Assembly (NCBI RefSeq): GCF_963921235.1
Contig: NC_086097.1
Span: 23,314,001-23,378,000 of the forward strand
Length of the DNA stretch: 64,000 nt
Reading direction: 5' to 3'
Source: Mobula hypostoma
Taxonomy: Eukaryota
Shown here: positions 681 through 46,540 of the stretch, one piece after another
How positions within the stretch are numbered: position 1 is the stretch's first letter
Layout: each line of letters begins with the position of its first letter
Made by a program: the position numbers and the translations under genes
The notes under the pieces: model-generated
Seen by the model: the letters and a program-made list of their open reading frames with translations, nothing else
What the model was told of the DNA's origin: nothing
Database searches by the model: none

Positions 681-1007
681 CCAGCAAGTCAGATAACAGC
701 AGAGAGGGTAATAAGCAGCTAATGTTATGGACTGAGATCCTTCATCAGGACTGATGAAGGGTCTCGCTCAGAAGATCGACGGCTCTTTCTGTGCATTGCT
801 CAAGATTTCCTGCATTTGCAGAATCTCTTTTTTATGACTTGTCACAAATTCCAGGTATTAACTAATAAACATCTGAACTTCTATCAAAGTATGAGCATAC
901 ATCTGTGTACAGACCAGTTATAAATGCCCGAGTCATGGACACCCATGCATACAAAGGGGCTCCTACTCAAAAGCCTGATATACTTACATACATCTGTTCC
1001 TACAAAT

Positions 1008-2030
1008 AACAGACGAGAGCATCAACAGATGCTGGAAATCCAAGAAACACACAAAATGCTGGAGGAACTCAGCAGGTTAGGCAGCATCTATGGAAAAAAG
1101 TGCAGACGACGTTTCAGGCTGAGACCGTTCGGCAGGGCTGGAGTGAAAAAAGATGAGGAGGGGATTTAAAATGTGGGGGGGGGGTGGTGGGAGAGAGAAA
1201 CACAAGGTAGGTGAAACCAGGAGGGGGGATGGATGAAGTAAATAGCTGGGAAGTTGATAGGTAAAGGAGATACAGGGCTGCAGAAGGGGGAGTCTGCTAG
1301 GTGGGGATAGAAGGCTCTGGAAGAAAGAGAAGAAGGCAGGAGTACCAGAAGGAGGCAAGAAGATGAGGTTTGAGAAATTGATGTTCATGCCATCAGGTTG
1401 GAGGCTACCCAGCCAGAATATAAGGTATTGTTCCTGCAACCTGAGTGTGGTCTCATCACGACAGTAGAGGAGGCCGCGGATTGACATATCAGAAAGGGAA
1501 TGGAAAGTGGAATAAAAATGGGTGTCCACTGTGTGATCCCATTTCTTCTGGCCGACGGAATGTAGGTGTTCGGTGACATGGTCTCCCAATCTATGCTGGG
1601 TCTCACTGATATATAGGAGGCCACACTGGGAACACTGGATACAGGATATGCCCCCAATAGACTCACAGGTGAAGTGTCGCCTCACCTGGAAGGACTGTTT
1701 GGGGCCCTGAATGGTAATGAGGGAGGAGGTTTAGGGGCAGGTGTAGCATTTGTTCTGCCTGCAAGGATAAGCGCCTGGAGGGAGATCAGTGGGGAGGGAC
1801 GATTGGACAAGGGAGTCACGTAGGGAGTGATCCCGGCAGAAAGCAGAATGTGGGGAGGAGGGAAAGATGTGCTTGGTGGTGGGATCCTGTTGGAGTCGGC
1901 AGAAGTTGCGGAGAATTATGTGCTGGACGCAGAGGCTGGTGGGATGGTAGGTGAGGACAAGAGGAACCCTATCCCTGGTAGGGTGGTGGGAGGATGGGGT
2001 AAGACAGACATGCATGAAATGGAAGAGATG
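1008..2030 (-). mobile_element. Penelope-like element 3' portion (GIY-YIG endonuclease remnant plus terminal repeat)
   Basis: FTCES...CIQCSQCGLLYISETQHRLGDHVTEH...EQYLIFWLGSLQPDGMN (ORF 1077..1685) and upstream RVPLVLTYHP...CYTCP linker; ends in the family terminal repeat. Confidence 0.88.
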
Positions 2031-4053
2031 CAAATAACAGAACCAGTTTCCTTTCTCTACTTTGAAAAATCATTTGTTCTTATTAGTATTGTGTGTTTTT
2101 GATGCCATTACGATATTGTGGAGGTATGGTAATCACATCGAGTTATTTCTCTGGAGAGAAATAAACAATCAACATTTCAAACCAAGACCCTTTATCAGGA
2201 CTCTTCTCAACTTATTCCTCTCCATAGACGTAGCCTAACTTACTGAGTTCCTCCTGTGTTTTGTGTATGTTGCTCAAGATTTCTAGCATCTGCAGGATTT
2301 CTTGCATTTACAAAGTTAGTTTTCTTTGTACTTTATCACACGGACAAAATTAACTATTTGGAGATCTGTTTAAAAAAGGGGTTCCCAACCTGGAGTCCAC
2401 AGACCACTCAGTTAATGGTTGGGGTTCATGGCATTAAAAAAGGTTGAAAAGTCTTGAATTAAAAAGAAAAAGGGGTTCATTACTAGTGGACAGCCTGTAC
2501 GAATGCCAGTATGTTCCAGATGTAATCTCACCAGTGCCCTACATAAGTAAAGCTTTTTATGCATTCAATTTGTATTCAATAACAATCTCTTATCTTTCCT
2601 AATTATGTGCTGTTCTTGCACATAAGCCTTTGTCAAACTATGCACAGATCCCTAAGAGCTCTGTGATCCTTCATTTAGATAATATTTTCTTATTTTTCAC
2701 TTTTTCCCACAGTATACTCCATTGACCTACCGTTTCCTGTTTTCTCTCTTGTTCCCTTTTCAAATAAAGGGGTTACATTTATTATTTTCCAATCTAATGT
2801 AAGCCTTCCTTGATTCTAGTGAGTCCTGGAAAGTTTAAAAGTAATACTTCAACTGTTTTACCAAGTGATTTCATTTCAGCACCTGGGATGAAGCCCACCA
2901 GGCCCCAGAGCCTTGTCAACACAGAGTTTGTTGAAGTAGGTTTTGTTTATAAGCCTCTCAATTTTTTTAAATAGGACTTTATGGAGTTTATTACATATTT
3001 TATGTCTTTATATATTCTACCCTCTGTGAAGCATACAAAACTTGCTCTTGGCATTCTTGTGTCTGAGTCAGTTGTAGAAGCATTACCAGTCATAGTAGGT
3101 ACCTTATGTTTACTTTCTAATTCCTTAGATTGTAGAACATTACAGCACAGCCCCTTCATCAAACAATGTCGTGTTGACCTTTTAACCCACTCTGAGATCA
3201 ATCTAACCATTCCCTGACATAACCCTCTATTTTGCTTTCATCCATGTGCCTATCCAAGTGTCTATCAAATGTCACTAATGAATGTGACTCCAGCACCATT
3301 CCTGGTAGAAATATTCTTGTCAGCATTTATTTGCATGACCACGAAATTAGTAAGTCGTCATTTTAAATTCAGTTAGTGGCTTCTTTGTCATAATGTAAAG
3401 TTTTGTATGCATGTGTTAGGACTGATAGTATAGATCCTCTCATGAAGAATATTCACTTTTTAACAGTTCCACGTACTTCCAAAGACACCAGATTCTGCAA
3501 ATGCTGGAAATCTTGAGCAACACACATGCACAAACCATGTGTTGCTGCATCTTTCCATTTGTTAGAAGACTGATATGAATTTGGAATTTGTTAACCAGTG
3601 ACATCAAGGCATATGGAGCAAATAACCCCAGTATCTCACTGGTCGAATTACCCACCTCCAAGGTTGAATGAAGAATCCCTCATTATTTGCTATAAAATGT
3701 TCATGTAGTTAATGAAAGTATTCGCTGTTTATCTGATGGTTAGTACTGTAGTCAGTCCTACAACCTTCACTACTGCAAGAGTGGCCACTTATTTATGTTT
3801 GTCATATCATGGATTTTGACATTGGTATTAGTAGTAGTTCAGTCAGTTCAGTCTGATGGTCTCCGAAGGAGTTACCTATTGGTGAGTTCTCAGGTGGATG
3901 TAGAGGCCGATCTGGGATCCACATGTTCTGGTGTAGTATAGGCAAGAGTCCTCCAAATAGACCACAACCTTGTCATTGGGTTTAGAGGCTTGTGCCCTCA
4001 ATGACTCAGATGGCTGTATTGGTTCGAGTCAGGGTTTTATGCTTTGGCTCTTG

Positions 4054-4453
4054 TATTCTGTCTGGGTAACCTCCAACCTAATGGCATGAATATCGATTTC
4101 ACGAACTTCTGGTAATGCTCCCCACCCCCCCTCCTTCACCATTCCCCATCCCCTTTTCCCTCTCTCACCTTATCTCCTTGCCTGCCCATATCTCCCTCTG
4201 CGCTCCTCCCCCCTTTTCCTTCTTCCATGGTTTTCTGTCCTCTCCGATTGGATTCCCCCTTCACCAGCCCTGTATCTCTTTCATCAATCAACTTCAACTT
4301 TACTTCCTCATCTTTTTTTCTCCAGTCCTGCTGAAGCGTCTCGGTCCGAAACGTCAACTGTACTCTTTTCCATAGATGCTGCCTGGCCTGCTGAGTTCCT
4401 CCAGCATTTTGTGCATGTTTCTTGGATTTCCAGCATCTGCAGATTTTCTCTTG
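4054..4453 (+). mobile_element. Penelope-like 3' fragment inserted into an older repeat, with an 18-bp target-site duplication
   Basis: Encodes LGNLQPNGMNIDF then the terminal repeat; flanked by tttatgctttggctcttg (4036-4053) and tttatgatttgggtcttg (4454-4471). Confidence 0.8.
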
Positions 4454-5604
4454 TTTATGATTTGGGTCTTGGTAGGGTCACCCATCCCAAATAGGGGGTA
4501 GAGGCCAGGCTAAGAATGGTCCACTGTTCCTCCAGGTTTAGGGGTTCATCTCGGGGCCAACTACCCAGACTGGTCACAAAAAAAATTACGGGAAGAGCAG
4601 TGAAGAACCCTTCGACATCTGAGTGCAACTGTATTCCTGAGTCTCCACCCCGAAACCGCATGAATGACTGTGGTGTAAACTAAGCTACTGACTTGACGAA
4701 GGAAACCATGAGCACTGCCAGAAATGGAGGGCCTTCATAATCAGTTGTGTAATGGACAGTAGAGATTGGGCAAGAGTAAGTTGTGGCTATGGTTAGTGAT
4801 TGGGCCTTTTGCTTTTTAAAAAGACGACTAGTATTAAAATCCGAGTGATTAAAATAAATCCATTTTTCAATATTGCAATCTTCTCTACTACAAATCATGG
4901 ATGTACAACTGGATTTAAATCTGAGTGGTTAAAATACATCCAACTCCATCAGTGCTGAAGGACCTTCTTGGATTCTGTCAGAAAGAAGCCCATAGCTGGT
5001 GCATGTAAAACAGATACACTGAGGTTTCTATAGTAATTCTCCAAAGACACTGTGCGATTTCAAAATGTTAATCTATTTGCCTAACTGCAGCGTTGACCTT
5101 GCAGCTGCTTTTGGAAGGAGTTGCGCTGCTGTGTAAATGTTAACGTGGTATTTGAGCTGAATTCAAAGTCAATGCTCTGCAAGTTCCAGTGAATGTCACT
5201 GCCGGTTCCCCAAGCTGTAAGCGTACACTTTATTAAGAATGTCGCATTTCTGCTTCCAGGTGCCTGCAACCACCTGTCTACTTTTGTTATCAATGTACCC
5301 AAGTCCAATGATCTTTCTGTCGATTGAGTTTTTCCCTTCACTTCAGGGAAGTGAAATGTGGTGTAAGAGCACATAGAATCAGCAAAGGCAATGTGAAATA
5401 GCCTTTCGCATGTCACCTATCTCGTAACTATTCATCTATCTCGTAACTATTATACATACTCCTAAAGACATGAGATCCTGCAAATGCTGGAAATCTTCAG
5501 CAGCACATACAAACCAGATGTTGCTACGCATTTCCATTTGTAAAAAGATTGATAGGAAATCAGAACTCTTGCGCAAATTTAAATTGGTGCTCAATCTATT
5601 TTTT

Positions 5605-7660: not shown

Positions 7661-7712
7661 GTCTGCGTGCTTTATGCACTGAACTTTCACATGATTGGCA
7701 GGTTATTAAGGA

Positions 7713-8075: not shown

Positions 8076-9943
8076 ATTATATATTTGCATTAATGAACAG
8101 GTGTATCTAATAAAGTGACTACTGTGTATGCATACTTTGACAATAAATTTTCTTTTGACTTAGAATCATGGAACCCAATTTGCACATTTCAAGCTCCCTT
8201 GAAAAGTAACATAATAATGATGGTGTAATCTAATTTTAAGGATGTTAGTTGAGGAATAAGTATTGACCAAGCCTACTTGATATATCTCCCTTGCTCTTCA
8301 ATTTAGTGCCTCAGTTCCTCATGCAGGCATCAGAAAGGAGGGGTGGGCCTCGGCTTCAGATCTCACCTAAATATTAGCACCACTTTACTCCGCTGGAGTC
8401 CTCCATTCATGCTCTAGAAATGACCACTAGGGATATGTGCATATGTATAATACACCACATATGGTCTTGTTTTTTGGTTTTGTAATGGGTATTTAAGAAC
8501 ATAGAACATAGCACTGTACTGGCCCTTCAGCTCACAATGTTGAGCAAACCTTTAAACTTACTCCACGATTAATCTAACCCGTCACTCCTAGATAGCCCAT
8601 AATGCTCCATTTTTCTTTCAGCCATGTGACTAAGTTTCTCAAAATCTTTAAGGTATTTTCCTCTACAGCCACTGGTAGCAGTACATTCCAAGCACTTAAT
8701 CAGTGTATATGAAAATAAACTGCTTTCGCTATCTCCCCTGAACTCACCTTAAAACGATGTCTTCTGGTAGTAGCCATCACCGACCCTGAAGGAAAGGTGG
8801 TAACTGTGCCCTCTATCTATGCTTATACTGTATGCCTCTTCTTTGAGACTGCATCTTTGAACTCTTATGGAGATCACGCAAGGGCTTTTCTCTTTGGAGC
8901 AAACGAAGATGATAGGAAGCAGAGATAGAGCGGACAGCCAGAAACTTTCTCCTGGGGCAAATATGGCTAATACAAGGGAGCATAACTTCAGTGTGTTTGG
9001 AGGAAAGTATAGGGGTCACATGAGATGCAGGTTTTCTTGCACAGGGTGGTGGGTCCATGGAATGCGCTGGTAGTAGAGGCAGATGTATTAGGAACACTTG
9101 AGAGATTCTTGGGCACTTGGATGAAAGAAAACTGGAAGGCATGTGGGAGGGAAAGATTAGATTGACCTTGGAGTAGGTGAAAGGATCAGTACAACATCAT
9201 GGGCCAAAGGATCTGAACTGTTTGATGAAAAAATTCATAAGCAAGACACTGAGCTATGTTTCCAAGCTGCTTTCTGAACAGGGGTACTGACCTTTGAGCA
9301 TGAGTGACTGTGTCTGAAAACTAGTTGGTTTTAAACACTGGGAGGTAGTGATGATCTTTCGTGTCTTTCAATGAAAGTCATTGCTTTGGAAGCTCTTATA
9401 GCAACTGCAGCATGAAATGTCACTTTGGGGTTGAATTTGTACTGGTAGCTACAACAGCAGAAAATTACCATTTAACTTTTTGAAAAAATGTTGAAATTTG
9501 CAGGTTGACTGTCTACTGAGATGGAAATTAATCCAAATAAGAAATTAAAGCAGATGAAGATGAACATGGACAATGTAGGCTCAAGCATAATGAGGGCAAT
9601 GGAAAGTCCTGATAAGGGTCTCAGCCCGAAACGTTGACTATTCATTCTTCTCCATTGATGCTGCATGACCTGCTGAGCTCTTCCACTTTTTTTCTGCTCT
9701 GGATTTCTAGTACCTGTAGAAGGTCAGGAAAAGAGAGGTTTGAGAAGAAGAATGATTATTTTTTAAATTGGAGACTGATCAAATGGAAAAAGAAAAAAAG
9801 AGATATCAAAGATAGAAATAGAACTGTTTCCGAAGATTGCAAGCAAAGGAGTCGTCATTTAGCACTATCGTCGCTTTGCTCCATCCCTTCTCTAGTCCTA
9901 ATCCTAATTCTACTACTTTCCAGGTTTATTTGTTCCAGTGTTA

Positions 9944-10119
9944 CTCACAACAAGCTGGAGGAACTCAGCAGGTCAGGCAGCACCCATGGAAAAGATCGGT
10001 CGACGTTCCGGCCCGAAATGTCGACCGATCTTTTCCACGGGTGCTGCCCGACCTGCTGAGTTCCTCCAGCTTGTTGTGAGTGTTGCTTTGGCCCCAGCAT
10101 CTGCAGATTATTTTGTGTT
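9944..10119. repeat. Fold-back Penelope terminal-repeat insertion with 15-bp TSD
   Basis: 68-bp inverted arms within 9943-10081; tttgttccagtgtta duplicated at 9929-9943 and 10120-10134. Confidence 0.88.
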
Positions 10120-10274
10120 TTTGTTCCAGTGTTAGTACCTATATCCTCAACTGTCAAAGCTCCAGGTTTCCCTTCCTAATCCTTACCAATGTTTTATTTT
10201 AGTCTCCTCCCATTTAAGTCTCTTAAGACTTGTTTCAATGTTCATGTTCAGTACTCTAATATCTCTTTTGGCTA

Positions 10275-13430: not shown

Positions 13431-14703
13431 ATCCCTGGTGCCACCAACCTGGGACAGCCCAACATCCATGAACACTGTTCAGCACTTGTCCATGTTGCTG
13501 GCCTTTGAGCATGTAGTGAAGGCCCATGAATCCGAAAGTCTTTCGTCATTACCCTTCTGAGATCCTGCTCCATCGAGGGCAACAGAATTGAATTCTGACA
13601 GTGGGGAGAACATACTGTTGCTGCAATAGATGGTTCAAGCAACAAGGAATGTGCTTCTAGTCTTGTAAATACAGTGGAGTTGAAAAGAGAACATCTGTAA
13701 TGGTTTAAATACCCTCATTTACAATGACTGGTTATATTTCTGTGGAACACAATATAATTGGTGGCTTTTAACTCATGGGATTTATCAATAGTATTAATCC
13801 ATAGTCAGCATTAGTCTATAGAGGAAAACTAGCTCCATTTCAAGAGAGGCAATTAAATCACTCAGCAATTAAACACCAAGTAACTAATAGCATTGATCTT
13901 AGGATACCTTATCCTTGAAGGATCCAGTCAGGAAAAACTCTTGTAACATTAATTTTACTGTTGCCTGGTTGCGAAAATTTATTCAATTTCCTTTCTCTGT
14001 ATTGAAATATATTTCTCCTCCATTTATTTAAGTCTTCTTTATCCTGCAGGCCGTCTTCTGGCTGGGGATGCAGTCAGGCAGTTGACAACGGAGTCTATTT
14101 CAAAGCTGGTGAAGCAGCCAGGGGTGACTTTCTGTCAGAACTTTCTGCCTATGTATTAGTACAATATAACCAGGCCCTTTAGCCCATGATGTTATGCTGG
14201 CTTTTTAAACTTACTCCACGATCAATCTAACCCTTCCCTCCCACATAATCTTCCATTTTTCTTTCATCCAAGAGTGTCTTAAGATTTTGCAGAAGCTGGA
14301 AGTCTTGAGTCGTGCACAAAGTGCTGTTGGAACTCAGCAAGTAAGGCAGCATCTCTGGAGGGAAATGAACAGGTGAAGGCTTTCGGCCTAAAAGGTCATC
14401 TCATAAACGCAGATGTCGATCCTAATGAAAGTTTCATAAGACAACAAGATATAGGAGCAGAAGTAGGCCATTCGGCCCATCGAGTCTGCTCTGCCATTCA
14501 ATCGTGGGCTGCTCCATCAGGCCTTCTCTCTTTCAGATGTCAGATACATCTGCCATATCACCCAATTAATCATTCTTAATTCCTGAGTGGAGAAATGCTT
14601 CTGCTTAAACAAACAAAATTGTGAGAAGAAGAATAATTCTAGGGTAATCTAAGTATTTATGGTCATTTATTGTTGAAGGCCCCAGTCTTTGCACTTTCCC
14701 CAT

Positions 14704-17700
14704 TAGACCATGGAGCAGAAGTAGGCCATTTGGCGCATTGATTCTGCTCTGCCATTCAATCATGGGCTGATCCAATTCTTCTGGTCATCCCCACTCCCCT
14801 GCCTTCTCCCCATACCCTTTGATGCCCTGGCTAATCAAGAACCTATCTATCTTTGCCTTTAATGCACCCAATGACTTGGCCTCCGCAGCTCCTCGTGGCA
14901 ACAAATTCTACAGATTTACCACCCTCTAACTAAAGTAATTTCTCCGCATCTCTGTTCTAAATTGACATTCTTCAATCCTGAAGTCACGCCTTCTTGTCCT
15001 AGACTCCCCTACCGTGGGAAATAACTTTGCCATATCTAATCTGTTCAGGTCTTTTAACATTCGGAATGTTTCTATGAGAACCCCCCCCCCCATTCTCCTG
15101 AACTCCAGGGAATACAGCCCAAGAGCTGCCAGACTTTCCTCATTCAGTAAACCTTTCATTCCTGGAATTATTCTTGTGAATCTTCTCTGAAAACCTCTCC
15201 AATGTCAGTATATCCTTCCTAAAATAAGGAGTCCAAATCTGCACACAATACTCCCAAGTGTGGTCTCATGAGTGCCTTATAGAGCCTCAACATCACATCC
15301 CTGCTCTTATATTTATACCTCTAGAAATGAATGCCAACATTGCATTCACCTTCTTCACCACCGACTCAACCTGGAGGTTAACCTTTAGGGTATCCTGCAC
15401 AAGGACTCCCAAGTCCCTTTGCATCTCTGCATTTTGAATTCTCTCCCCATCTAAATAATATTCTGCTCATTTATTTCTTCCATCAAAGTGCATGACCATA
15501 CACTTTCCCACATTGTATTTCATTTGCCACTTCTTTGCCCATTCCTCTAAACTATCTAAGTCTCTCTGCAGGCTCTCTATCTCCTCAACACTACCCACTC
15601 CTTCACCTATCTTTGTATCATTGGCAAATTTAGCCACAAATCCATTAATACCATAGTCCAAATTACTGACATACATCGTAAAAAGCAGCGGTCCCAAAAC
15701 CAACCCCTCTGGAACTCCAGTGGTAAGCGACAACCAGCCAGAATAGGATCCTTTTATTCCCACTTCCTGTGTTCTGCCGATCAACCAATGCTCCATCCAT
15801 GCTAATAACTTCCCTTTAATTCCATGGCCTCTTATCTTGCTAAGTAGCACCTTGTCAAAGGCCTTCTGAAGAATCCAAGTACGCCACATCTATTGCATCT
15901 CCTTTGTCTACCCTGCTTGTAATTTCCTCAAAAAATTGCAGTAGGTTAGTCAGGCAGGATTTCCCTTTCACGAAACCCTGCTGGCTTTGGCCTATCTTGT
16001 CATGTGTCTGCAGGTACGCCGTAATCTCATCCCTAACAGTCGATTCCAACGACTTCCCAACCTCTGATCTCCAGGGTAGCAGGTCTATAGTTTCCTTTTT
16101 GCTGGCTCCCACCCTTCTTAAACAGCGGAGTAATATTTGCAATTTTCCAATCATCTGGTTCAATGCCAGAATCTATCGATTCTTGAAAGATTATTGTTAA
16201 TGCCTCCGCAATCTCTCCAGCTACTTCCTTCAGAACCTGAAGGTGCATTCCATCAGGTCCAGGAGATTTATCCACCCTCAGACCATTAAGCTTCCGGAGC
16301 ACCTTCTCAGTCATAATTTTCACTGTGCATACTTTACTTCCGTGACACTCTTAAATGTCCGGTATACTGCAGATGCCTTCCATTGTGAAGACTGATGCAA
16401 AATACACATTCAGTTCCTCTGCCATCTCTGCATCTCTCATTACAATATCTCCAACGTCATTTTCTATTGGTCCTATATCTACGCTCATATCTCTTTTACC
16501 ATTTATATACTTTAAAAAAGCTTGTAGTATCTTCTTTGATATTAGTTGCCAGCTTCCTTTCATAATTCATTTTTTTTCCCTTCCTAATGACCTCCTTAGT
16601 TTCCTTGTGCAAGTTTTTAAAAGCTTCCTAATCCTCTATCTTCCCACTAGCTTTAGCTTCTTTGTATGCCTCTCTTTTGCTTTTACTTTGGCTCTGATTT
16701 CACTTGTCAGCCATGGTAGTGTCCTTCTTCCATTCAAAAATGTCTTCTAATTTGGAATATATCTGTCTTGCACTTAATTCATTTTTCGCAGAAGCTCCAG
16801 CCATTGCTGCTCTTCTGCCCTTCCTGCTATTGTCCCTTTCTAGACAACTTTCGCCATTTCCCCTCTCATGCCATTATAATTTCCTTTATTCCACTGAAAT
16901 ACCGACACATTGGAATTTAGTTTCTCCTTCTCAAATTTCAAAGTGAACTCTATCATATTGCGATCACTGTTCCCAAAGGGTTCCTTAACCTTAAGCTCTC
17001 TTACCATCTCCGGATCATTGCACAACACCCAGTCCAGCACAGCCGATCCCCTAGTGGGCTCAACAGCAAGCTGTTCTAAAAAGCCATCCCTTAGACATTC
17101 TACAAATACTCTCTCTTGAGGTCCAGTACTGACCTAGTTTTCCCAATCCACTTTCTTGTTAAAATCCCTCAACAATTATCATGACATTGCCCTTCTGACA
17201 CATCTTTTCTATCTCCTGCTGTAATTTGTAATCCACATCCTGGCTGCTGTTTGGAGGCCTGTATACAACTGCCAATAGGGTCCTTTTACCCTTGCCATTT
17301 CTTAACTCAACCCATAGAGACCTTCCAATCTATACCTTCCAATCCTATGTCATCCCTTTCTAATGATTTAATATTATTTCTTATAAACAGGCCACAACAC
17401 TCCCTCTGCCTACTAACCTATCTTTCTGATACATCGTATATCCTTGGATGTTCAGCACCCAATGGCAGCCACCCTTTAGCCAAGTTTTAGAGATGGCCAC
17501 AGCATCATACTTGCCAATCTGTAGGTGAATTTCAAGATCTTCCATTTTCTTTCTTGTGCTGCGTGCATTCAAATACAACACTTTCAGTCCAGTATTTGTT
17601 GCTTTCTGTTGTAAATCATCCCGCCTACTGTGATTATGCCTCATCTCCTGCCTGTCCTTCCTATCATCTCTGTTGCACACTGTCTTTGATTTATTTCTGT

Positions 17701-18330: not shown

Positions 18331-18975
18331 CAATGACACATTCAGCCATTTTCATCAGAGATGATGCCGAGGCGTGTCTAGTCCAGGGGTATTTATACTC
18401 AACTCCCATTGTCCATCCCTCCTGATTGGTTCGTCCTCAACCAAATAGGTTTCTGCTGTCCCACTTCGTTTAAAATCATATTCTAGTTTTTACTTAGAGC
18501 AAGACCTACGTCTTTGTTGAAATTCACATTCTCTAGTCTTATTTCAATGGCTTCCTTCACCAGGCAGTCCCAAAAGCCATTGGCACAGCACAGTAGTTTT
18601 GTCCTGTCAGTCAGTCCTGTGGTCGTTGTGCGTGCTGTGTTCTACTACCACGGGTTTCTCCGGGAAACCCAAATGTATACACCTCCTATATTCCTTGACG
18701 CAGGTTTCCACCGTGTGCCCCATCTGACTGATACACACTGCTCCACATTCACAGGGAATCCTGTTAACGCCAGCTGTCCTGAGACCCAGGTCATTTTTTT
18801 TACTCACATAAACTGGGAGTGGCGCTTCCTCGCGGGTTTGTGGATGGCATTGATCCGGTATTTCTTCCGGATCCTGGTGATCTTTCCAGGAACTGTGGAA
18901 ATATAGGGAAGACCGGCGGTAGCAATGGATTCCTCCTCATTGTTAGTTTTCCCAGTTTTTTCTGGTTTTCTAAAA
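18331..18975 (-). mobile_element. Second Penelope-like lineage: GIY-YIG fragment plus truncated terminal repeat
   Basis: LPYISTVPGKITRIRKKYRI...GVNRIPCECGAVCISQMGHTVETCVKEY...VVEH, a decayed GVY.IPC.CG..YIG.T.R motif distinct from the other Penelope family. Confidence 0.8.
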
Positions 18976-21000
18976 GTTAACTGTTTATTCCCCTCCATAG
19001 ATGCTGCCTGACTTGCAATGAGACACTTTAATGTCCTTAATAGATCTTCTTCTACCACCACTCCAACAGCCCTCCATTCACCTATCACTCTCTGTTTATT
19101 TAAAAACAACACCCTGACATCCCTCATTTGCTTTCTTCTAACCTCCTTCAAATTATATCCTTATGTATTAGCCATTTCCACCCTGGGAAAAATTCTTTTG
19201 AGACTGGCTAACTACGTATCAAACGCTACTTGTATTAAGCCTTTCATTCTGGGAAAAAATTCTTTCATTTTTTGGAACCCCCTGTGGACTCTCTCCAGGG
19301 CCAGCATATATTTCCTTAGATATTGAGTCCAACCTCACTCACGATATTCCAGATGCAGTCTGACCAATGGCTTGTAAAGCCTCAGCAGAACATTCTTGCC
19401 TTTATATTCTAGTTCCCTCAAAATAAATTAGATGTATGCTTTCACTACCTTCATGGAAAAGTCACGTCTGATTTTTCACATCCTTTCAGATAGAATATAT
19501 AGACCATAAGATATAGGAGCAGAAATAAACCATTTGGCTCTGCTATTTCATCATGGCCACTCCATTTTTTCTTTTCCCAATCTCCTGCCTTCACCCTGTA
19601 TCCCTTCATGCCCTGACTAATCAAGAATCTATCAACCTCTGCCAATGACTTAGCCCACATAGCCGCATGTGGCAACAAATTCCACATATTTACCATCCTC
19701 TGCTTAAACAAATTCCTCTTCATCTCCACTGTCAATGGATGGCTCTCTATTCTGCAGCTGTGCCCTCCGGACTTAGACTACCCCCCTCCGCAGCAATTGT
19801 AGTTATTCTGAAAACAGGCTGCTGGATCTGTCAATCCCTATTTTCAAACTCCTTTTTGTTTCAATAGAGTAGGACAGTCGCATGTGCCTTCACCAAATTG
19901 TTCAAGCTTTTCTGTGATCTGCTGAATTTTAGGAGATGAGACTAATACATCCACTAATTCAGTGACTACCTTTCTGAGTAGTCCTATTTTTTCACAGACA
20001 TCAATTTTAACTTCATGGCTTTGAAAAATTATAACTCTTTATTTGTCTCAGAACAATTGGCACATGCATGAAAGAGAAATGAAGGGCTTTGCAGAAGGGA
20101 AGGACTAAATTGATTTTGGAGTAGGTTTTAGGGCTAAACATCGAGGCTGAAGGGTTTGTACTGTGCTGCACTGTTTTATGTTCTATTTTCTACGTAATTG
20201 GTTTTTACGAAACCCATACTGTCCTGTGCTTTGTGACCTCCAGCAACCTCCAGAATATTAGCTTCCCATTTGCTCCGTGATTACTTTCTCAACAAGGACG
20301 TGGTAAAATTCAACCTCCTACTCTAAGGCTCATACCAGGTTGCTTTCTTTCATTCTACCACTGACCACTTTGTTGCAGCGTTGTCGCCCAGACATTCTTT
20401 TGGTGCAACACACACGAAACACTGGAGGAACTCAGCAGCTCAGGCAGCGCCTATGGAGGGGAATGAAGTGTCGACGTTTCAGGCCGAGCCCCTTTCCCAG
20501 ATGTATGTGCTGCTGACTTGCTGATTTTCTCCAGCATTTCATGAATGTTGCTCGGAATTTCTGGTGCCTGAAGAGTTTGTGGTGCAGGTTTATTATTGTC
20601 ACGTGTGCTGAGGTACAGAGAACAATAAGCCATCCATACAGATCATTTCAAAACATAAAGAAATTAAGATAGTATAGAAGGAAAAGAAATAACAGAATGC
20701 AGAATTAAATGTTGCAGAGGAAAATGCAGTGCAGATAAACAATAAGGTGCATGGGCCAGGTTGAGGTAGATTGTGAGGTCAAGGATTCATCTTCAACGTT
20801 TGATAGATCTAATTTTCCTGTTGCCCTCAGGAGCAGGTAAAGTGACCCTTGAGGCTCACCTTCAGTGCGAGCTTTTCTAAAATACTGGCATTCAGAAACT
20901 GAACTTTTATGTGCTCTTGCATCTTTTACTGAGATGATCCTGCTGGGAAAGCCTAGTAGTAGTCCTCAAGGGGAAGCCCATGTGATCCCCCGGGAACTCT

Positions 21001-21335: not shown

Positions 21336-21521
21336 CATCTTATTCCTGCAGGGTCTCTTTTTCACCACTTTGTCTCTGATCCTTTAGTTGCAGCTAAATC
21401 ATTCTCAATTGCTGGAAGGATTTTGCCTTTATCAGTCCTGAAGAAGGGCCTCAGCCTGAAGTGTTCATTTCATTTCCATAGATGCTGCCTGACCAGCTGA
21501 GTTCCTCCAGCATTTTGTGTG

Positions 21522-21980
21522 TGTAACTCTTGGTTCGGCTAGCAGCTTAATCTAGGGGAAGACAGCCCTTGGCCCGGCCAAACTTAAGAAATCTCGTTTG
21601 GGTGGATACTGCGTGATGTGTCCCCTGTTACAAATCAGTACCACGAAATAACTAACAGTACACAATATGCCATTAATTTGACTCAATGGTTAGTAAAGAA
21701 ACAAAAAAAAAAGAAAAGGGCCCATTTTCATGAAACAGTTTACTGTGTAACGTTGGAGCTTGCGGTTCAGTCCACTGGTTCCCCGTCGACCTCCTCTGAG
21801 CGTAGCCGACCCTCAGACCCTCACTCCAAGTCCACTCCATCTGACAGTCTACCAACTTTCTCCATTCACATCTCTCCTCATTGCTCCCCAGCAAAAGATT
21901 GCAAAATTCCCAGACCCACAAGAAAGAACAACATGCCTCTCATTGGATAGCCCACATTCCAAAGCCCCGTTATCTCCAGT
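21522..21980. mobile_element. LTR-like fragment, unclassified
   Basis: Begins TGTAAC, truncates a Penelope tail on the left and abuts a CR1 on the right; non-coding. Confidence 0.35.
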
Positions 21981-26709: not shown

Positions 26710-26730
26710 ATCAGGAGGCCCATCAACATA

Positions 26731-27590: not shown

Positions 27591-27937
27591 CCCGCTTCCT
27601 GGTCTGCTATTTTAAGCAGCTGTTTTGTACAGAGAAACAAAGTGCTGTTAAATTGTTCCAGAAAAAAATTCTCTCTGGTACCATCAAATGTCAATATATA
27701 TGGAAAAAAAAGCTCTGACTGTCTGACCCAGCAGTTAGTTATCCCCTGAATTATTCCACTAAGTGTAGTTCAGTTTCAGAGTGGCCACGTGTTTGGCCTA
27801 TTATTCGGGAGACTAGGCCATTGATCTGGAGATGTTTCAGGGTGAGAACCTTCATTAGTACCAGAAAGGAAGAGGGCAGAAGCCGGAATAAGAAGGTGGG
27901 AGGAAAGGGTGGAGTACAAGCTGGCAGGGGAAAGGTG

Positions 27938-29625
27938 ACACACACAAAATGCTGGAGGAACTCAGCAGGCCAGGTACCACCTATGGAAAAAAGTACATTC
28001 GACGTTTTGGGCCGAGACCCTTCGGCAGGACTCGAGAAAGAAAGATGAACAGACAGAGTAAGAGGGTGGGGGAAGAGAAGGAAGAAACACAAGGCGATAG
28101 GTGAAACTGGGAGAGGGAGGGGTGAAGTAAAGAGCTGGGAAGTCGATTGGTGAGAGAGATACAGGGCTGGAGAAGGGGGAATTTGATAGGAGAGGACAGA
28201 AGGCCATGTAAGAAAGAAAAATGGGAGGAACACCAGAGGGAGGTAATGGGCAGGTAAGGAGATAAGGTGAAAGAGAGAAAAGGGAACGGGGAATGGTGAA
28301 GGGGGAGGCGGCATTACCAGAAGTTCGAGCAATCGATGCTCATGCCGTCAGGTTGGAGGCTATCCAAACGGAAAATAAGGTGTTGCTCCTCCAACCCGAG
28401 TGTGGCCTCATCGTGATAGTAGAGGAGTTTGTGGACTGACATGTCAGAATGGGAATGGGAATGGAATTAAAATGGGTGGCCACTGGAAGATCCTGCTTGT
28501 TCTGATGGACGTAGGTGCTCAGTGAAGCTGTCTCCCAATCCACATCCAGTCTCACCAATGTACAGGATCACCAGACACAGTAGAAGACCCTGACAGACTC
28601 ACAGATGAAGTGTTGCCTCACCTGGAAGGACTGTTTGGGGCCCTGAATGGAAGTGAGGGAGGAGGTGTTGGGGCAGGATAAGTGCTAGGAGGGAGATCAG
28701 TGGGGAAGGATGAATGGACAAGGGAGTTAGGAGCAATCCCTGTGGAAAGCAGAAGGTGGTGGGGGCAGGGTAAGATGTGCTTGGTGGTGGGATCCCATTG
28801 GAGGTGGCAAGTTACAGAGAATTATGTGCTGGACGCAGAAACTGGTGGAGTGGTAGGTGAGGACAAGAGGAACTCTATCCTTGTTGGATGGATAGGGTGA
28901 GGGCAGATGTGTACAAAATGGAAGAGATGTGGTTGAGGGCTGTGCTGATGGTGGAGGAAAGGAGACCCATTTCCTTGAAGAAGAAGGACATCTCCTTTCA
29001 TTCTGGAATGAGAAGTCTCATCCTGAGAGCAGATGTGGTGGAGGTGGAGGAATAGAGAGAAGGCGATGGCATTTTTACAAGTAACTGGGTGGGAAGAGGG
29101 TACAGGAAGCAGCACAAATTCAGTCGCCGATATAGGGTAGGAAAATTGGGGAGTGACAGCAGTGTAGGCTTGGAATGTAGGCTGTTCCATTTTGCCAATA
29201 AAAGGCAGGCATAACTGGGATCCGTGTGGGTACCCATGGCTACACCTTTTCTTTGAAGGAAGCAGGAGGAGCCAAAGGAGAATTTGTTGAGAGTGAAGTC
29301 AAGTTCTGCCAGATGGAGGAAAGTGGTGGTGGAAGGAGACTAGTTGGATCCTGTGTTCAGAGCTTTGAGACCTTCCTGGTGGGGGATGGAGGTGTATATG
29401 GACTGGGCATCCATGGTGAAAATCAGATGCTCAGGGCCAAGGAACTTGAAATATTTGAAGTGTCACAGATGTAGGTAGGAAGAGACTGAACCAGGGGGTA
29501 TAAAACTGAGTCGAGGAGTGCAAATATGAAGTCAGTTGGGCAGGAATAAGTAGAAACGATGGGTTTACCTAGACAGGCAGGTTTGTGGATCTTGGGTAGG
29601 AGGTAGAGGCAGGAGTAGCAGGGTG
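27938..29625 (-). mobile_element. Penelope-like element (RT remnant, GIY-YIG remnant, terminal repeat)
   Basis: MGTHTDPSYACL RT motif and DLPVATHFNS; co-linear with 1008-2030; short inverted terminal fragment at about 29660-29740. Confidence 0.88.
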
Positions 29626-30296
29626 AGGGAACTGAAAGGTGAGACTAGGTGAGAGGGGGAAAGGGCCTCGGCCTGAAATGTTCATTCCCCTCCATGCATG
29701 CTTGCTGACATGATGAGTTCTTCCAGCATTTTGTGTCTCCTGTTCCTCTGTCATTCCTGATGCAGCAGGATTGATGATTGAGAGTGAATGTCTAGGAACC
29801 TTTTTTCCTCTGACCCCACTTAAATCTCCCTAGTCCCCATTCTCACCATGAATCCATTGCTAAGGTCCCCTTCCAAGTACCTGCCGCAATATTCAGAAGG
29901 GGGCATATACCCTGAACACCCATCACATGCTAATAATGCCAGGAAATTAATTCTACATGATCTCCCCACTCCTAGTTTTAATCTGACATACCCCAATTCT
30001 GTACAATTGTTGGTCATTGCTTTCACTGGTTGTCAGTTAGAATGTGTGTAAGAATATAATTAATAAGGTGTGAAGATATTACAGCGTTTTGCAACAAAAT
30101 TGAATTCATTATGGTAGACAAGTTAACCAATTGGCCTGTTAAGTTTACACAATTCTTTCAACACTAGATGTAAATACCTACAGAAAAGTGAATCCCACAG
30201 TGGTGTATGGTAACATCTACATATGCTGATAATAACAAGAACAGAATAGCATAAGCTGTTGTCACCTCACGTCACCGTTTGACTTTTTCCCCACAG

Positions 30297-30500
30297 AGGC
30301 ATCCATTCTCAGCTACGACGGCAGCATGTACCTGAAGATAGTCATGCCCTGGGTCATGCACACAGAAGCCGAAGACGTTTCCCTCCGCTTCATGTCCCAG
30401 CGAGCTTATGGCTTACTCGTGGCCACGACCTCGAGGGACTCAGCTGACACACTTCGCTTGGAGCTTGACGGAGGGCGAGTGAAGTTGACAGTCAACTTAG
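30297..30500 (+). CDS. nrxn3: Alpha-neurexin internal coding exon (start of LNS/laminin-G domain 4), 204 nt, phase 1-1
   Basis: Acceptor tttttccccacag at 30284-30296 and donor gtattg at 30501. Translates (E)[67 protein letters not shown]. From recalled sequences, [26 protein letters not shown] and DGGRV fit NRXN3 better than NRXN1 or NRXN2. Confidence 0.93.
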
Positions 30501-33382: not shown

Positions 33383-33398
33383 TGCCATCTAGTGGTCA
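33383..33398 (-). promoter_or_regulatory. Candidate CTCF binding site
   Basis: Minus strand TGACCACTAGATGGCA matches the CCASYAGRKGGC core, in repeat-poor intron sequence. Confidence 0.5.
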
Positions 33399-41469: not shown

Positions 41470-42330
41470 CACGCACACAAAATGCAAGAACAGAGGCCCC
41501 AACCTGGGGTGAATGGAGTTAGTGGCAGATAAAATGTTGGGAACCTCTGTGCTGGAGGAACTCAGCAGGTCAGGCAGCATCTATGGAGAGGAGTAAAGAG
41601 CCAACATGTCAGGCTGAGATCCTTCATTATGCCAGGATGGGAAGCTAGAGTAAGAAATTGGGAGGAAGGGAAGGAGTACAAGCTGGCAGGTGATTGGTGA
41701 GACCAGGTAAGGGGGAAGGAGGATGAAGTGAGAGCTGAGAGGTGATAGGTAGTGCTGTTGCGTGAATGAAATCAGCGGAGAGAATTACAGGCAGATTCAA
41801 AGCAGCTTCTTTATTCAACAAAACAAGGCACAGCAGGTATCACATGGAGACGCCCTTGGTGGAAAGGTCTACTGGCCCAATGAAGGGCTCGATATTTGTT
41901 TGCTAAACACAAAGGGCAATTCCATATTTACAAGGTATAGACAATGCTTTCTTTTGAAGCTACATAACAAACTTCACACCTTCTGATTCGCATCCATCCC
42001 ACAGACGCCAGTCTCGTCTGTGGACTGGGATTCACAGCTTTTAGGAATGCATTGTTCCGAATTAAATCCACAATACATTTTCAAGGAACAGAAGACTGGT
42101 AGCCAAAGCCATTCACTAAATGTAAATGACCTAAACCCAAAAATCACTCTAACGGATGGGAGAGGTAAACGGCTGAACAGGAAGGAATCTGATAGAAGAG
42201 GAGAGTGGACAATGGGAGAAAGGGAAGGAGAAGGGGCATCAGAGGAAGGTGATGGGCAGGTGAGGAGAAAGTAAGGGGTAAGAGGGTAGCCAGAATGGGG
42301 AATGGAAAAGAGAGATTGGAGGAGGTTAAT
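41470..42330 (-). mobile_element. Penelope terminal region interrupted by an unclassified insertion of about 400 bp (41753-42154)
   Basis: Purine-rich tail matches 1180-1360 and 28060-28320 on both sides of the insert. Confidence 0.65.
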
Positions 42331-44894
42331 TATTATTCCTATCTCTATTAGTATTTCATTGTTTCTGTTCTGCTGCGTTGCTGTTTATGATAATTAGATG
42401 CAAATTTTATTCGTAGCACCACTGACCCCTGAATTATTGATTCCTGATAGGAATGACCCCCTGAGATTTTATTAATATTAAATGAAGCATCTCCCAATTG
42501 ATGCCCTGTCTGGAATCAGGCATATAAAGAAATATTAAATAAATATTCGTTCTTTGTTCTTTCCTGATCCAGCAGTAAGAGGTATTTGCAAACAGAGGAA
42601 ATGCTATGTATATGTTAAAAGTTATTTTTTTAAAAATAGCTATTTTATTGGAAAACTCATTAATCACTTAATAAAACACAGAAGGAAAGAAGAATACCAA
42701 TAAACCAACCTGATAAAATGCAGCACAGAACCCCAGGTGTCTGATACATGCTTCTACAATCATCTCTCGCTCTCTCATGTCAGTCTCTCTTAGCACTGCT
42801 TGCAACCCCAGCCTAAGATTCCTCACTTGCTCAAATGAGTAGCCCCTTTTTGTTAATGCCTTTCAGAACCTCATTCCTACAAATCTTCCATTCAGTCGTG
42901 TTACCAGTCTGTATCTTCTTATCCCTTGTAACCTCTGCCAGGCACCTAACTTAAAAGCAGAGAGAGCTGAAGCGCATACTTTCCACCATTATCTCGCCTC
43001 AGAGCTGTGTATTTCTGCAAGTTCTCAAAACATTAGACACAAATAGGGTCGGCGCTAAAAACATACCACCATTATAACACGGGCAACAAGGGTTCAATTC
43101 CCACCACTGCCTGTAAAAAGTTTGTATGTTCTCCCTATGACCATGTGGGTTTGCTCCAGGTGCTCTGGTTTCCTCCCAAAGACCTAAAAGCTAGTAAGGT
43201 AATTGGCTATAAAACATTACCACATTACAAACTGACGCCATGTTGTCTTACAACCACCACTTTGGTATGTTTCAAAGAGAAATCAAATATGACTTCTGGA
43301 TATTTTAATTTTCTCCCCACAAGGTGACTGGGCAGAAAATAGTCATCAAGTGTTGTTGAGTCAGTTACCAGTATAGATCAATGTCACATTCATTCGCAAG
43401 TCACTCAAAATACATACTCATAAGGGTCCTGTTTCACTTCCCTGTTCATTATTTGAAAATGTTCTTTAAGTGTACGTAAAAATGTTTTCTATATTGCTAA
43501 TATCTTGCTCAGATTTAGTCTAGAGTACATCAGCAAAATGGATGCTTTAAAGATGAAAAGTTGGAACTGCAAACACTGAAGACATTCACTTCTCATCAAA
43601 GGGCCCATACCATCTCTTGTTCCATCCAACTAACACATTAATTTTCAGAACTGCTCTCTAAACTGGCCATTTTTGACTTGAAATTAAGATACAGTTGGTT
43701 ATCCGTGATGTTTTTTCAGGATAGGGACAATACAATGATGAAGGAAACCCATTATTCCCCAAAAAGGTATCGCGGCCTCTGTATGGTGATTGTGCCGAAT
43801 GGTCCGTGGCTGTTTGCACCCACTTTTCTGTTGCGGTTGACGACACATGACAAACCTGGCCATGTGAAACTGAACCCAGATTGTCGACTCTCTCCCGTAC
43901 TGTTGCTCAAGAATTTCTCTGCACATATCTGGTTTTCTTGGGGCTTGACTGATCTCAAATTTTATTTTGTAAAGCACAACAAGACAATATTGTCAATTTG
44001 TAATGTCTAAAATGAGAGAAGTATTGGCTCCCTACTTTAATTGGATGAATAATTACAACAAATTAAACCTGTGATATGAAAATAAATCTTTTTACAATGA
44101 CCAAAGTGAGCTGAGGCCATCTGATAAATAAGGATGATGCTTCATAATTGGTGTCTATAATTTTGTACCTTTACATTTTTTAATAAAAATTGTCTTTTTT
44201 TATTGGTCCTGATTTCACTATGTGAAAAGTATCAGCAAAATTTGTACTATCCTCAACAGATTCATATTTTTCTGCTTTAATCCTGTACTTTTTACTGAAA
44301 TTCTTGAGAAACCTGATAAATACTCAGAGATCACTGCTCCTACCAATGTGCACCGCTCACCCATCTTCTTGCCAAATACTGTTGTCCATCTCTTCTCAGT
44401 GTATTTGATAGACTAGTTGGTCATGAGCGTGTGCAGTAGTTGGGCCAGTCTATCTTTGGGACATGCAATTGGAACAGTCCCCCCACTGGATCTTGGCTGA
44501 GTTTTCACATGGCTAGTTGTTTGCAAGTGGCCATTTTATGAAAAAAAAGAGGTGGTGGTGGGAGAGTGAGGGTGAGAGAAGAGTTTGGGGGTAAAGATAT
44601 GTTGACACCTATTCTAAAATTAACATAGGCTTCTGCTTCTGCAGTGGTTTTTGAAAGTGAGTATAAGGTAATGTGAAAAAAATGTGTAAGACTATTGTTG
44701 TATGAGAATAACCAGTTTATGTTTGGGTCTCATTTTTGTAAAGATACTTGCATATGTGAAGTGAAGTGTAAAGTAAAATGGCCACCTTCTTGCGTGTGTC
44801 TGTCCCCGGAAGGGTGGACTTATTGTTATTGGATGTCTGCAGCTGTTACCTTGAAGGATGCGATTTCATCTTTCATTTATTCTTCCCCGTCTAG

Positions 44895-44921
44895 ACTGTA
44901 TCAGGATTAACTGTAACTCCA
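44895..44921 (+). CDS. nrxn3: Neurexin alternative splice site 3 (SS3/AS3) 27-nt microexon
   Basis: ttcttccccgtctag|ACTGTATCAGGATTAACTGTAACTCCA|gtaagt. With the G carried from the upstream exon it reads D-C-I-R-I-N-C-N-S, the known SS3 insert that follows ...VNL in alpha-neurexins. Phase 1-1 and frame-preserving. Confidence 0.95.
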
Positions 44922-46334
44922 GTAAGTTATTGTTCAAGTTTCATTTTGTTCTTAATGCTTTTATCATGTTTAAAAAAATTTAATATGTATGTTGTTATGT
45001 CTTTAGAAACACTGGGGAAAACTGGCAAGGTTGACTTTCTGAAAATGCATAAAGTTAATTTAAAATAATCCACAGTCAAATCACATTTAACAAATACCAA
45101 TTAAAATGTGTAAAATTTTATTTTATCTATCACCTTGATACAGAACAGTAATTTAATTCTAAATATTCTTAGTGAATATGGGAGTTAATTAGGGTTACCT
45201 GATGCTAATCAAGCTATTCTTAAATCTCAAATTATTGCCAAGTGTTTTGTCAGCAGCAGGGTACGGTTTAATGGTATTTGACTGTTCTAGTAACTGCCTG
45301 CATGTTTTCAATGGTCAGGGGAGTCATGTGATTAAAATGCTTCTATAGTCACAAAGGAAATAAGGGGAAAATCCATCAACGAGCAAATATGGGGCTATTT
45401 TATTGGAGGTTCGAGAGGTTTGTAGTGTAGATTTACCCATGTCTAGATGACCCAGTGAGAAACTAACAGTCAGAAATTTTACAGTTTCTCTGTGTCTCCA
45501 AGGTCACTTACTGTATTGTATTCAATGATGCCTTTGCAAATAGGAGAAACCTAACAAGACTGTTAGTCAGAAATAAAGATGAGTCCACAGTCTGTGTGCA
45601 CTGTGTGAGGTGTTAAGTGTTTACATTAGCCAGTCTGTTCTTATTTACCGTTACATGGCAAGCATAAATAATCCAGGTAGGCAGCAACTGCTTATTTTCC
45701 AACAGAGTAGCTTGTACATAGTCAAAAGTCCTTTTCACTATCTAGACTGTAAGGTAAGTATTCTGCTGCTGGATCTTCAGAGAAAATTACTGTTCTTAAG
45801 TTGCTGTTCTGTTTACATTTGTGTCAGGCTTTTTCGTTATTAGAGCTCCATGTTGGCTTTTTGTGCTGAACATTCAGATTCACTTCATTAGATCATAAAT
45901 ATTCCATTCCTAAACAAATCACTGCATCTCAAACTACAAAGAAATTACTAACTATTCTTTAATAATATCGGTAGTCCTTTCTGTTTATTTACACACTAGA
46001 TGTGAATATCATGGATAATTTATTGTCTCAGTATGGAAGAAGCAATTAAGAATCTACCACATTGCAGGGTCTGGGGTCATATATGGAACATATTCTAAAG
46101 GGGAACATTGAATCAGTTGGGTTTTTACAGCAATCAATTAATTTCAGTTACCATCAATGAGAGCAGCTTTTTAAAAAAATAAAATTCCAGATCTTAAAAA
46201 ATCCCAGCTGCCATTGTGGATTTCAATCCCACTTCTTTGAATCAGTAGACCATAACACTAGCTTCTAGTCAAGCTGCTTAACCTCTACAGTGATAATTTA
46301 TTCTTTATAAATCCAGGGAGGGAGAGAGAAAACC

Positions 46335-46540
46335 AGAAATGCAAGAGATTCTGCAGATGCCGGAAATCCAGAGCAACACAAACAAAATGCTGGAGGAACT
46401 CAGCAGGTCAGGCAGCATCTGTGGAAATGAATAAACAGTCGATGTTTCAGACTGAGATCCTTCATCTGTCCTGATGAAGGGATTCGGCCTGAAACGATGG
46501 CTGTTTATTTTCCTCCATAGATGCCGCCTGACCTGCTGAG
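46335..46540. repeat. Fold-back pair of Penelope terminal repeats
   Basis: ctcagcaggtcaggcagcatct...gatccttcatc, spacer tgtcct, then gatgaaggga...agatgccgcctgacctgctgag. Confidence 0.8.

Follow-up and report, generated by a model that had tools for sequence, protein, structure and literature searches.

Remnants of a probable Neptune-type Penelope-like element carrying a predicted, degraded hammerhead motif in neurexin introns of a ray

The window considered here, that is, the whole 64-kb stretch of DNA that was analysed, includes part of a neurexin gene. A coding exon at 30297..30500 (+; 204 nt, bounded by AG and GT) encodes a laminin-G/LNS domain of neurexin-alpha, and a 27-nt micro-exon at 44895..44921 (+), in phase with it, is presumably neurexin 'splice site 3'. 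The larger exon matches neurexin-1-alpha (PDB 3qcw) with E 3.2e-37 in phmmer; its Pfam match to Laminin_G_2 (E 0.0014) is below the cut-off. The micro-exon has two PDB matches only, both to neurexin-1-alpha (E 0.36-0.47) and both directly following the residues aligned to the larger exon, and the codon joined across the two exons specifies Asp. Since the larger exon lies on the + strand, the pre-mRNA strand is also +, as the first-pass annotation of this DNA had proposed, and sense and antisense are used here in relation to it.

A profile built from the copies themselves detects 28 pieces of a terminal repeat in the window at E<=1, 27 of them at E<=0.032, and nothing at E<=0.05 in the reversed window; 13 pieces lie on + and 15 on - (p 0.85). 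The whole core of the hammerhead-like motif is spanned by 14 of the 28, five of them sense (core base C3 at 751, 4328, 9609, 21438 and 46471) and nine antisense. All ten copies listed previously, including antisense ones with C3 at 1135, 2198, 20500, 28028 and 46468, were found where they had been placed, and four more antisense copies (748, 27858, 41630 and 57550) had been overlooked. Core copies occur on both strands at two loci (751/748 and 46471/46468), while same-strand sense core copies are spaced 3.6-25 kb apart.

Three copies stand behind a Neptune-type GIY-YIG coding remnant, and the Penelope origin earlier ascribed to the terminal repeat is supported. The element at 1003..2041 (-) is 5'-truncated, with a GIY-YIG coding remnant (2003-1350), a pyrimidine-rich 3' region, the motif (C3 1135, A6>C) and a tail, and is flanked by an 11-bp target-site duplication (1003-1013 and 2031-2041); at 11 of the 12 loci examined such a duplication is at chance level or absent. 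The sense 3' end at 4050..4463 (+), used as the reference for a depth analysis of public contigs, retains the last endonuclease codons (4050-4118), the 3' region, the tail and the best-preserved motif of all (4323-4360, +; C3 4328, A6>C). The longest element, at 27820..29762 (-), is degraded; besides reverse transcriptase (RT) and endonuclease remnants (29414-28164) it has a motif (C3 28028; A6>C, G12>A) accompanied by a partial tandem copy (C3 27858; G5>A), and its 5' end bears an inverted short pseudo-LTR (pLTR; 29658-29762, +).

As judged from sequence, the source is likely to be an endonuclease-bearing Penelope-like retrotransposon of the Neptune type. P0002 aligns to 2003-1365 with 75% identity (tblastn, E 2e-95) and also to 28164-29109, and homologues in two ray species show 56-74% identity. 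Four of five homologues contain GIY-YIG (Pfam E 1e-4 to 2e-3, one at the cut-off), and four of five have a CX2-5CxxC linker upstream of the endonuclease; the order of RT followed by C-terminal GIY-YIG is seen in the homologues and in the remnants at 29414-28164, and Pfam gives no match on the window's own element fragments. The repeat is abundant, at about 150,000 contigs per DNA run.

The remaining copies are solo, tandem or inverted. Sense solo pLTRs lie at 9575..9722 (+; C3 9609, G8 deleted), which has a weak inverted arm on its upstream side (p ~0.02), the joint being at stem I, and at 21433..21535 (+; C3 21438, A15.1>G, with a deletion across the cleavage region). An antisense pLTR at 41549..41703 (-) keeps its native pyrimidine-rich upstream sequence (C3 41630; C3>A, G5>A, A14>C), and two antisense pLTR pieces form a partial tandem at 57358..57555 (-), with four changes in the core near 57550. 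That tandem and the 27858/28028 pair are the only two in the window, and neither has intact cores.

Inverted pairs involve both strands. Those at 678..825 and 46347..46540 are head-to-head about an axis in CAG-TC-CTG, at the motif's 5' boundary; the former has an antisense core with C3 at 748 (G12>A, A13>T) and a sense core at 751 (A15.1>G), the latter an antisense core at 46468 (U4>A) and a sense core at 46471 (U16.1>A). At 2148..2298 the opposite arm of the head-to-head pair starts at the first base past the predicted cleavage site of the antisense core (C3 2198, G8>A) and the joint is at stem I, while at 20400..20577 the opposite arm begins about 20 nt downstream of an antisense motif (C3 near 20500; A6>G, G8>A). 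Two pairs have their axis at GGCC: the near-perfect one at 9937..10110, inside stem II, in which neither arm has CUGANGA, and one found with the copy-built profile at 14283..14401, whose antisense arm ends inside stem II and whose sense arm is short and weak (E 0.01). The predicted folds of 9925-10125 and 46335-46550 have minimum free energies of -137.5 and -108.0 kcal/mol, respectively.

In five insertions, two inverted arms meet head to head no more than 8 nt from the 5' edge of the motif, and the joints of these inversions lie mostly at its self-complementary parts. A 10-nt fold-back at 21436 (p 0.17) and a possible arm at 57555 (p 0.28) are outside this count. Arms beginning at the cleavage site might be ascribed to cleavage of the RNA. 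We set this reading aside, since it could not be told apart from joining through the complementarity of helix I; in the 14 public matches with an upstream inverted arm, that arm never starts at the cleavage site. The contig depth profile was likewise discarded as a map of truncations, as its loose ends run into the motif past an indel of the reference.

The ancestral sequence of the repeat, taken as the majority of the 14 core-spanning copies, fits the minimal type I hammerhead published for Penelope-like pLTRs. It has all 11 invariant core bases (C3 U4 G5 A6 N7 G8 A9, G12 A13 A14 A15.1 and U16.1) as well as H17, and the majority of the loose ends in public contigs matches the core from G8 onward. 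The ancestral form also has both stems, an unpaired base before the G10.1-C11.1 pair and a palindromic, loop-less helix III, so that the hammerhead layout first described for the repeat holds at the level of its predicted ancestor; the stem lengths needed correction, stem I being 5 bp (CAGTC/GACTG) rather than 4 and stem II comprising a U-G pair in addition to its three G-C pairs. Pair probabilities in the stems are 0.90-1.0 in the 38-nt consensus and about 0.55 in a 129-nt context. The double form scores -19.9 kcal/mol against -21.0 for two monomers, under an energy model that cannot score a hammerhead core. Not one of the 14 individual copies in the window has a complete core.

That the resemblance to a hammerhead is a chance property of a common repeat seems highly improbable. 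Rfam covariance models find no family in the window at E<=1, and at E<=10 the eight weak matches in 46300-46600 include no hammerhead; the best of them, at 46399-46540, are to miRNA-precursor models, which fit the inverted-repeat hairpin and score far below gathering thresholds. A generic minimal hammerhead descriptor has 0 matches in the window vs. 0.3 in 100 shuffles, the minimum-energy fold of the consensus pairs part of the core otherwise (-12.7 vs. -10.5 kcal/mol), and stem covariation among the 14 window copies is no higher than in shuffled alignments (0.210 vs. 0.217), although none is expected among decayed copies of one source. Against chance stand the full complement of core bases, H17, stems, unpaired base and palindromic helix III in the ancestral form, and the covariation of the same layout across families that carry homologous endonucleases: in 40 aligned short-class motifs it reaches 0.464 vs. 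0.133 (0 of 500 shuffles), with all slid controls at most 0.132, the search pattern itself having fixed helix III and the two outer pairs of stem II. The core pattern has 110 distinct public matches; H17 is present in 102 of them, and 55 form a stem I of at least 3 bp (9.2 in permutations). A homologue of the window's endonuclease is present at 8 of the 124 public loci with the pattern, none of which is a close relative of the window pLTR (one marginal match, E 0.009). Nor do we think it at all probable that some copies have been co-opted and still cleave, or act on, the neurexin pre-mRNA. Several are a single base away from the canonical core, and a natural A6C hammerhead has low but detectable activity (PMC3088659); the window nevertheless has no descriptor match and no covariation among its copies, sense copies lack a close same-strand partner, and the motif would be buried in the long hairpins predicted for the inverted pairs. 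X19 and X20, two runs guessed to be RNA, consist of unstranded contigs and show no clustered ends, a result that is silent on cleavage or expression.

A further proposal is that selection removes or disables sense copies within introns, since any intact hammerhead there would cleave the pre-mRNA of the host gene. The first-pass annotation was right that every sense core is defective (A15.1>G at 751 and 21438, A6>C at 4328, loss of G8 at 9609, U16.1>A at 46471), with no intact core in five; each has exactly one core change, and minimal disabling would look alike. Sense copies are also fewer, at 5 vs. 9 core-spanning copies (p 0.42) and 3 vs. 7 single-orientation loci (p 0.34), both in the direction of purging, and a preprint (10.64898/2026.07.22.740005) reports retrozymes to be under-represented in introns of Xenopus compared with intergenic DNA, with no strand split seen in the available part of that account. 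However, the antisense cores are at least as broken, with none of nine intact and 17 changes at 99 positions vs. 5 at 55 in sense copies (p 0.23), and neutral decay alone would give 0 of 5 intact with a probability of 0.59-0.72. The copies diverge at about 20% of non-CpG sites and 39% of CpG sites; non-CpG changes affect 20 of 140 core positions (14%) vs. 40 of 196 non-core ones (20%; p 0.19), and in public contigs the catalytic G12 changes at the CpG rate (0.20-0.27, with 0.18-0.22 for the loop CpG). Two antisense copies and one sense copy have A6C, which also makes up the majority in public contigs, where shares represent reference-biased depth rather than copy counts; its presence on both strands and its prevalence in the contigs point to an inherited subfamily trait, not one selected in place. 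The wide spacing of sense copies and the report of single motifs without cleavage (PMC4209133, as far as its description of them goes) likewise argue against selection. LINE pieces tilt in the same direction (6 + vs. 13 -, non-significant), so the ribozyme is not required to explain any strand bias, and the pyrimidine tract and CAG upstream of the motif offer splice signals as an alternative reason for purging sense copies. We found no published work on strand-specific selection of hammerheads in Penelope-like elements or on this ray family. Selection on the ribozyme therefore appears unlikely at this locus, although 14 copies give low power and are too few to exclude a genome-wide strand effect; about 140 copies per strand would be needed to separate 15% from 5% intact, and about 700 to separate 15% from 10%.

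It is likely, then, that the copies lost their core bases by neutral decay or by inheritance and not by strand-specific selection, and simple decay, which the earlier note had offered as its alternative, is the better reading given that antisense copies equally lack intact cores. We put at roughly 0.85 the probability that the copies in these neurexin introns are Neptune-type Penelope-like remnants with a predicted pLTR hammerhead, their cores decayed or inherited as defective rather than selected. The suggestion that the lineage seeds introns with ribozyme modules goes too far; what is there is decayed debris, with sense copies kilobases apart, whereas such motifs reportedly require dimers. 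In the proposed sequence of events, an element nuclease would nick the host DNA and reverse transcriptase would copy the RNA from its tail backwards, as demonstrated for another family (PMC11167929, as described there); for the present one, insertion of this kind is suggested by the 11-bp duplication and the 5' truncations. Most copying stopped early, leaving tail and motif, often as head-to-head inversions. Going by the literature, the motif of the source element may cleave only weakly, as a dimer or with the help of protein. Mutation of the copies after insertion is sufficient to break most cores; with cores broken in this way, the copies are predicted not to cut the neurexin pre-mRNA.

A more speculative role for the hammerhead, which we regard as possible though doubtful, is that of a landmark in reverse transcription rather than a cutter. 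Copying of uncleaved element RNA into cDNA would halt where helix I begins on its 5' side, and the self-complementarity of the motif would prime the second strand, with helix I, CAG-TC-CTG and GGCC letting the cDNA end fold back or anneal. If true, no antisense template would be needed to account for the head-to-head pLTR palindromes, and the amplification of a subfamily with a weakened A6C core would be explained as well. The clustered junctions and the A6C subfamily thus bear on the part played by the hammerhead in Penelope-like transposition. More generally, a known motif is now extended to a very abundant repeat in a ray, the neurexin locus shows nothing to suggest that the host selects on the ribozyme, and the size of the family suits a sense-versus-antisense test of whether dispersed minimal hammerheads cut host pre-mRNA.

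Cervera and de la Pena (2014, PMC4209133) described minimal type I hammerheads (min-HHRs) from pLTRs of Penelope-like elements of metazoans. In fishes they are reported from Xena, Poseidon and Neptune elements, for the most part as single motifs that are dispersed and highly variable. As that paper depicts them, they share with the window repeat the core, a helix I of 4-5 bp, the unpaired base between 9 and 10.1, the G10.1-C11.1 pair and the palindromic 15.2-16.2; the short stem II (3-4 bp) and the large A6C subfamily set the window repeat apart. The portion of the paper available names no cartilaginous fish with a min-HHR, and its supplements may list one. Endonuclease-positive elements of the Neptune clade (Craig et al. 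2021, PMC8557442) are described with the same RT, CX2-5CxxC linker (common to Neptune and Nematis) and C-terminal GIY-YIG endonuclease, and with 5' truncation, partial tandems, an inverted truncated 5' copy and a pLTR hammerhead, whereas the window has degraded fragments only.

The Poseidon element PAc of Anolis carolinensis (Frangieh et al. 2024, PMC11167929) belongs to a different clade, and the window repeat is known from sequence alone; in the published description of PAc, as in the window, the hammerhead lies next to the reading-frame start and reverse transcription begins at an internal tail. Its ribozyme is said there to need protein and to be dispensable for insertion in vitro, which fits the amplification of an A6C subfamily in the window family. 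Non-LTR retrozymes (PMC7229834; 10.64898/2026.07.22.740005) also have a type I hammerhead in a repeat related to Penelope-like elements, but are described as arrays in which successive head-to-tail units carry complete motifs, while the window has dispersed or inverted copies, all of them incomplete. Closest in the matter of junctions are the Penelope pLTRs of Adineta vaga (Arkhipova et al. 2013, PMC3846280), which are likewise inverted, with palindromes at the junction that were interpreted as self-priming. That account, in the part bearing on these junctions, favours an antisense template and does not relate them to a hammerhead, whereas the window junctions fall mostly on self-complementary parts of the motif. 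The A6C variants or the junction observations may already be in print; the clustering of junctions is a refinement of a pattern that already is.

The repeat that carries the predicted minimal type I hammerhead, the pseudo-LTR (pLTR) of a Penelope-like element (PLE), was searched for with a profile made from eight seed copies, which finds 28 pieces in the window, 13 on the + strand and 15 on the − strand, and gives no matches in the reversed window. The complete core is spanned by 14 copies, five sense (on the pre-mRNA strand) and nine antisense, named here by the position of core base C3; all ten copies listed in the first-pass annotation are among them, and its observation of a repeated motif is confirmed. 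The ancestral helix I is 5 bp long (CAGTC/GACTG), and the order is CUGAUGA, one unpaired A, helix II (GGGU/GCCC), GAAA, a loop-less ACGU palindrome and a GUC triplet. Antisense copies 748, 41630 and 46468 have in common a G>A at the third helix II base, which may mark a subfamily; in 748 and 46468 the partner is changed too, giving an A-U pair, and the G>A is absent from the opposite arms of the inversions at these two copies. Contigs of four public runs, of which run X1 may be the assembly's own sample, were aligned to reference stretch 4270-4470, the two runs tentatively classed as DNA (organisms A and B) contributing 159,315 and 148,823 contigs, and the two tentatively classed as RNA 15,936 and 6,992; the majority sequence of their loose ends fits the motif from G8 on.

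The surrounding gene is represented by two pieces of neurexin on the + strand, from a six-frame reading that may miss shorter or masked exons (unmasked stop-free frames of at least 36 residues: 311 on + and 313 on −). One is an exon at 30297-30500 that matched neurexin-1-alpha structures (E 3e-37), the other a 27-nt micro-exon at 44895-44921, flanked by AG and GT, that extends the same protein in phase. Both exons are internal, and we therefore infer that the entire window lies within the + strand pre-mRNA. Among other elements, a degraded frame at 18500-18950 (−), which we take to resemble a second, Poseidon-type GIY-YIG element, lies beside a scrap of Neptune-type pLTR at 18972-19016 (+); broken frames at 49765-50640 (+) presumably resemble a Tc1-like transposase, and frames at 59655-60081 (+), we assume, the C-terminal endonuclease of a site-specific non-LTR element. 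Pfam gave no match for 18500-18950, 50084-50401 or 59655-60081. LINE-type reverse transcriptase (RT) remnants, 19 merged pieces from 575 to 63941, lie six on + and 13 on − (p 0.17), with RVT_1 matches at 15470, 25676 and 62616.

Copies 4328 (sense) and 1135 and 28028 (antisense) follow coding remnants alignable to ray proteins that show RT and GIY-YIG features. The closest named endonuclease homologues are those of Hypanus sabinus and Mobula hypostoma, which makes a ray the likely host. The CX2-5CxxC linker, attributed to Neptune and Nematis in PMC8557442, is present in four of five homologues. The insertion at 1014-2030 has an 11-bp duplication on both sides. Three of the homologous ray proteins (P0003, P0006 and P0007, annotated as mucin-2, chitinase-domain and kinase-domain isoforms) have element coding sequence inside, which is either exonised element DNA or annotation error. 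A pyrimidine tract of 76-92% C/T abuts helix I upstream at 4305-4325 (+) and in 1135, 28028, 27858 and 41630 (−); in the best-kept copies it ends in CAG and looks like a 3′ splice site, and in D. virilis Penelope an intron ends at helix I, according to PMC4209133.

Rfam returned no hammerhead match, and there is no covariation among the 14 decayed window copies. Public contigs scanned with the core pattern alone gave three viral loci and, from two of the 64 parts of the metagenome collection, 121 metagenome loci. Base 17, unconstrained in the pattern, is A, C or U in 102 of 110 distinct matches, and helix I reaches at least 3 bp in 55 of the 110 vs. 9.2 ± 2.8 in permutations. For 39 short-stem public matches plus window copy 4328 the covariation score is 0.464 vs. 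0.133; such scores are inflated by related sequences, but no slid control exceeds 0.132. The window's endonuclease has a homologue at eight public loci, and a ninth was found with ray protein P0002; at eight of these nine loci the homologue sits upstream of the motif and on the same strand. The layout is thus conserved in elements of this kind, although the public loci belong to other families. The three viral contigs that match the core pattern, L001-L003, are likely chance matches, L001 having G17 and no helix I and L003 a helix I of only 2 bp.

No core is intact on either strand (0/5 sense, 0/9 antisense), and the earlier suggestion that selection acts against intact sense-strand cores in the neurexin pre-mRNA finds no support at this locus, in a 14-copy sample where only a very large effect would be detectable. 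The sense copies carry a single core change each, and antisense copies are commoner than sense (p 0.34-0.42), as such selection might leave them. Core changes, however, number 5/55 in sense vs. 17/99 in antisense copies (p 0.23), and non-core changes are similar between strands both outside CpG (13/70 and 27/126) and within it (13/35 and 25/63). These non-core rates predict that about 6% of copies would keep an intact core, so that under neutrality 0/5 has a probability of 0.59-0.72, and 0/14 one of about 0.4. The premise that such motifs would cut is itself mechanistically weak: PMC4209133 has single motifs without cleavage, the Anolis motif required protein (PMC11167929), the sense copies here lie 3.6-25 kb from each other, and the inverted pairs are predicted to form long hairpins. 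As to individual changes, an A-to-C change at core position 6 (A6C) is common to 4328, 1135 and 28028, the three copies joined to coding remnants, and A makes up only 22-29% of aligned contig depth there, a share biased toward the reference; this shows A6C to be a large inherited subfamily. A natural A6C hammerhead is given a rate below 0.1 per minute in PMC3088659. G12, which lies in a CpG, is changed in 20-27% of contig depth, much like the loop CpG (18-22%).

Native pyrimidine-rich upstream sequence is retained in five of the 14 core-spanning copies, while the remaining nine, at seven loci, begin at the 5′ edge of helix I. An inverted arm of this repeat makes up the upstream DNA at five of the seven (four with p <0.001, one with p 0.02), with the axis at CAG-TC-CTG at 750 and 46470, the joint at helix I at 2205 and 9605, and the joint further downstream at 20500; two further pairs have their axis at GGCC within helix II. 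Five breakpoints fall in 8 nt vs. two in the ~280 nt upstream (p 3e-7 under a uniform model, by a test picked after the data were seen that leaves out copies broken inside the motif). An inverted arm lies just upstream in 14 of 109 testable public matches, four of the arms beginning no more than 6 nt from C3, and four more matches, at three loci, reach the edge of the search window. Two junction classes could arise from a single cDNA end located at the edge of helix I, and fold-back and annealing of two cDNAs yield identical products. A near-perfect inverted pair at 9937-10110, with arms of about 75 bp (MFE −137.5 kcal/mol for 9925-10125), comes from a distinct, little-diverged subfamily and would be predicted to make long double-stranded RNA in the pre-mRNA.

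Palindromes at head-to-head junctions are already known and have been read as self-priming in PMC3846280; what this locus may add is that the palindromes fall on complementary parts of the hammerhead itself. In the longest element remnant, 27820-29762, a partial tandem lies on the 3′ side and a short inverted copy on the 5′ side, a layout described in PMC8557442 and PMC3846280. The ancestral form of the motif likewise agrees with the features given for minimal PLE hammerheads in PMC4209133, which supports the original identification.
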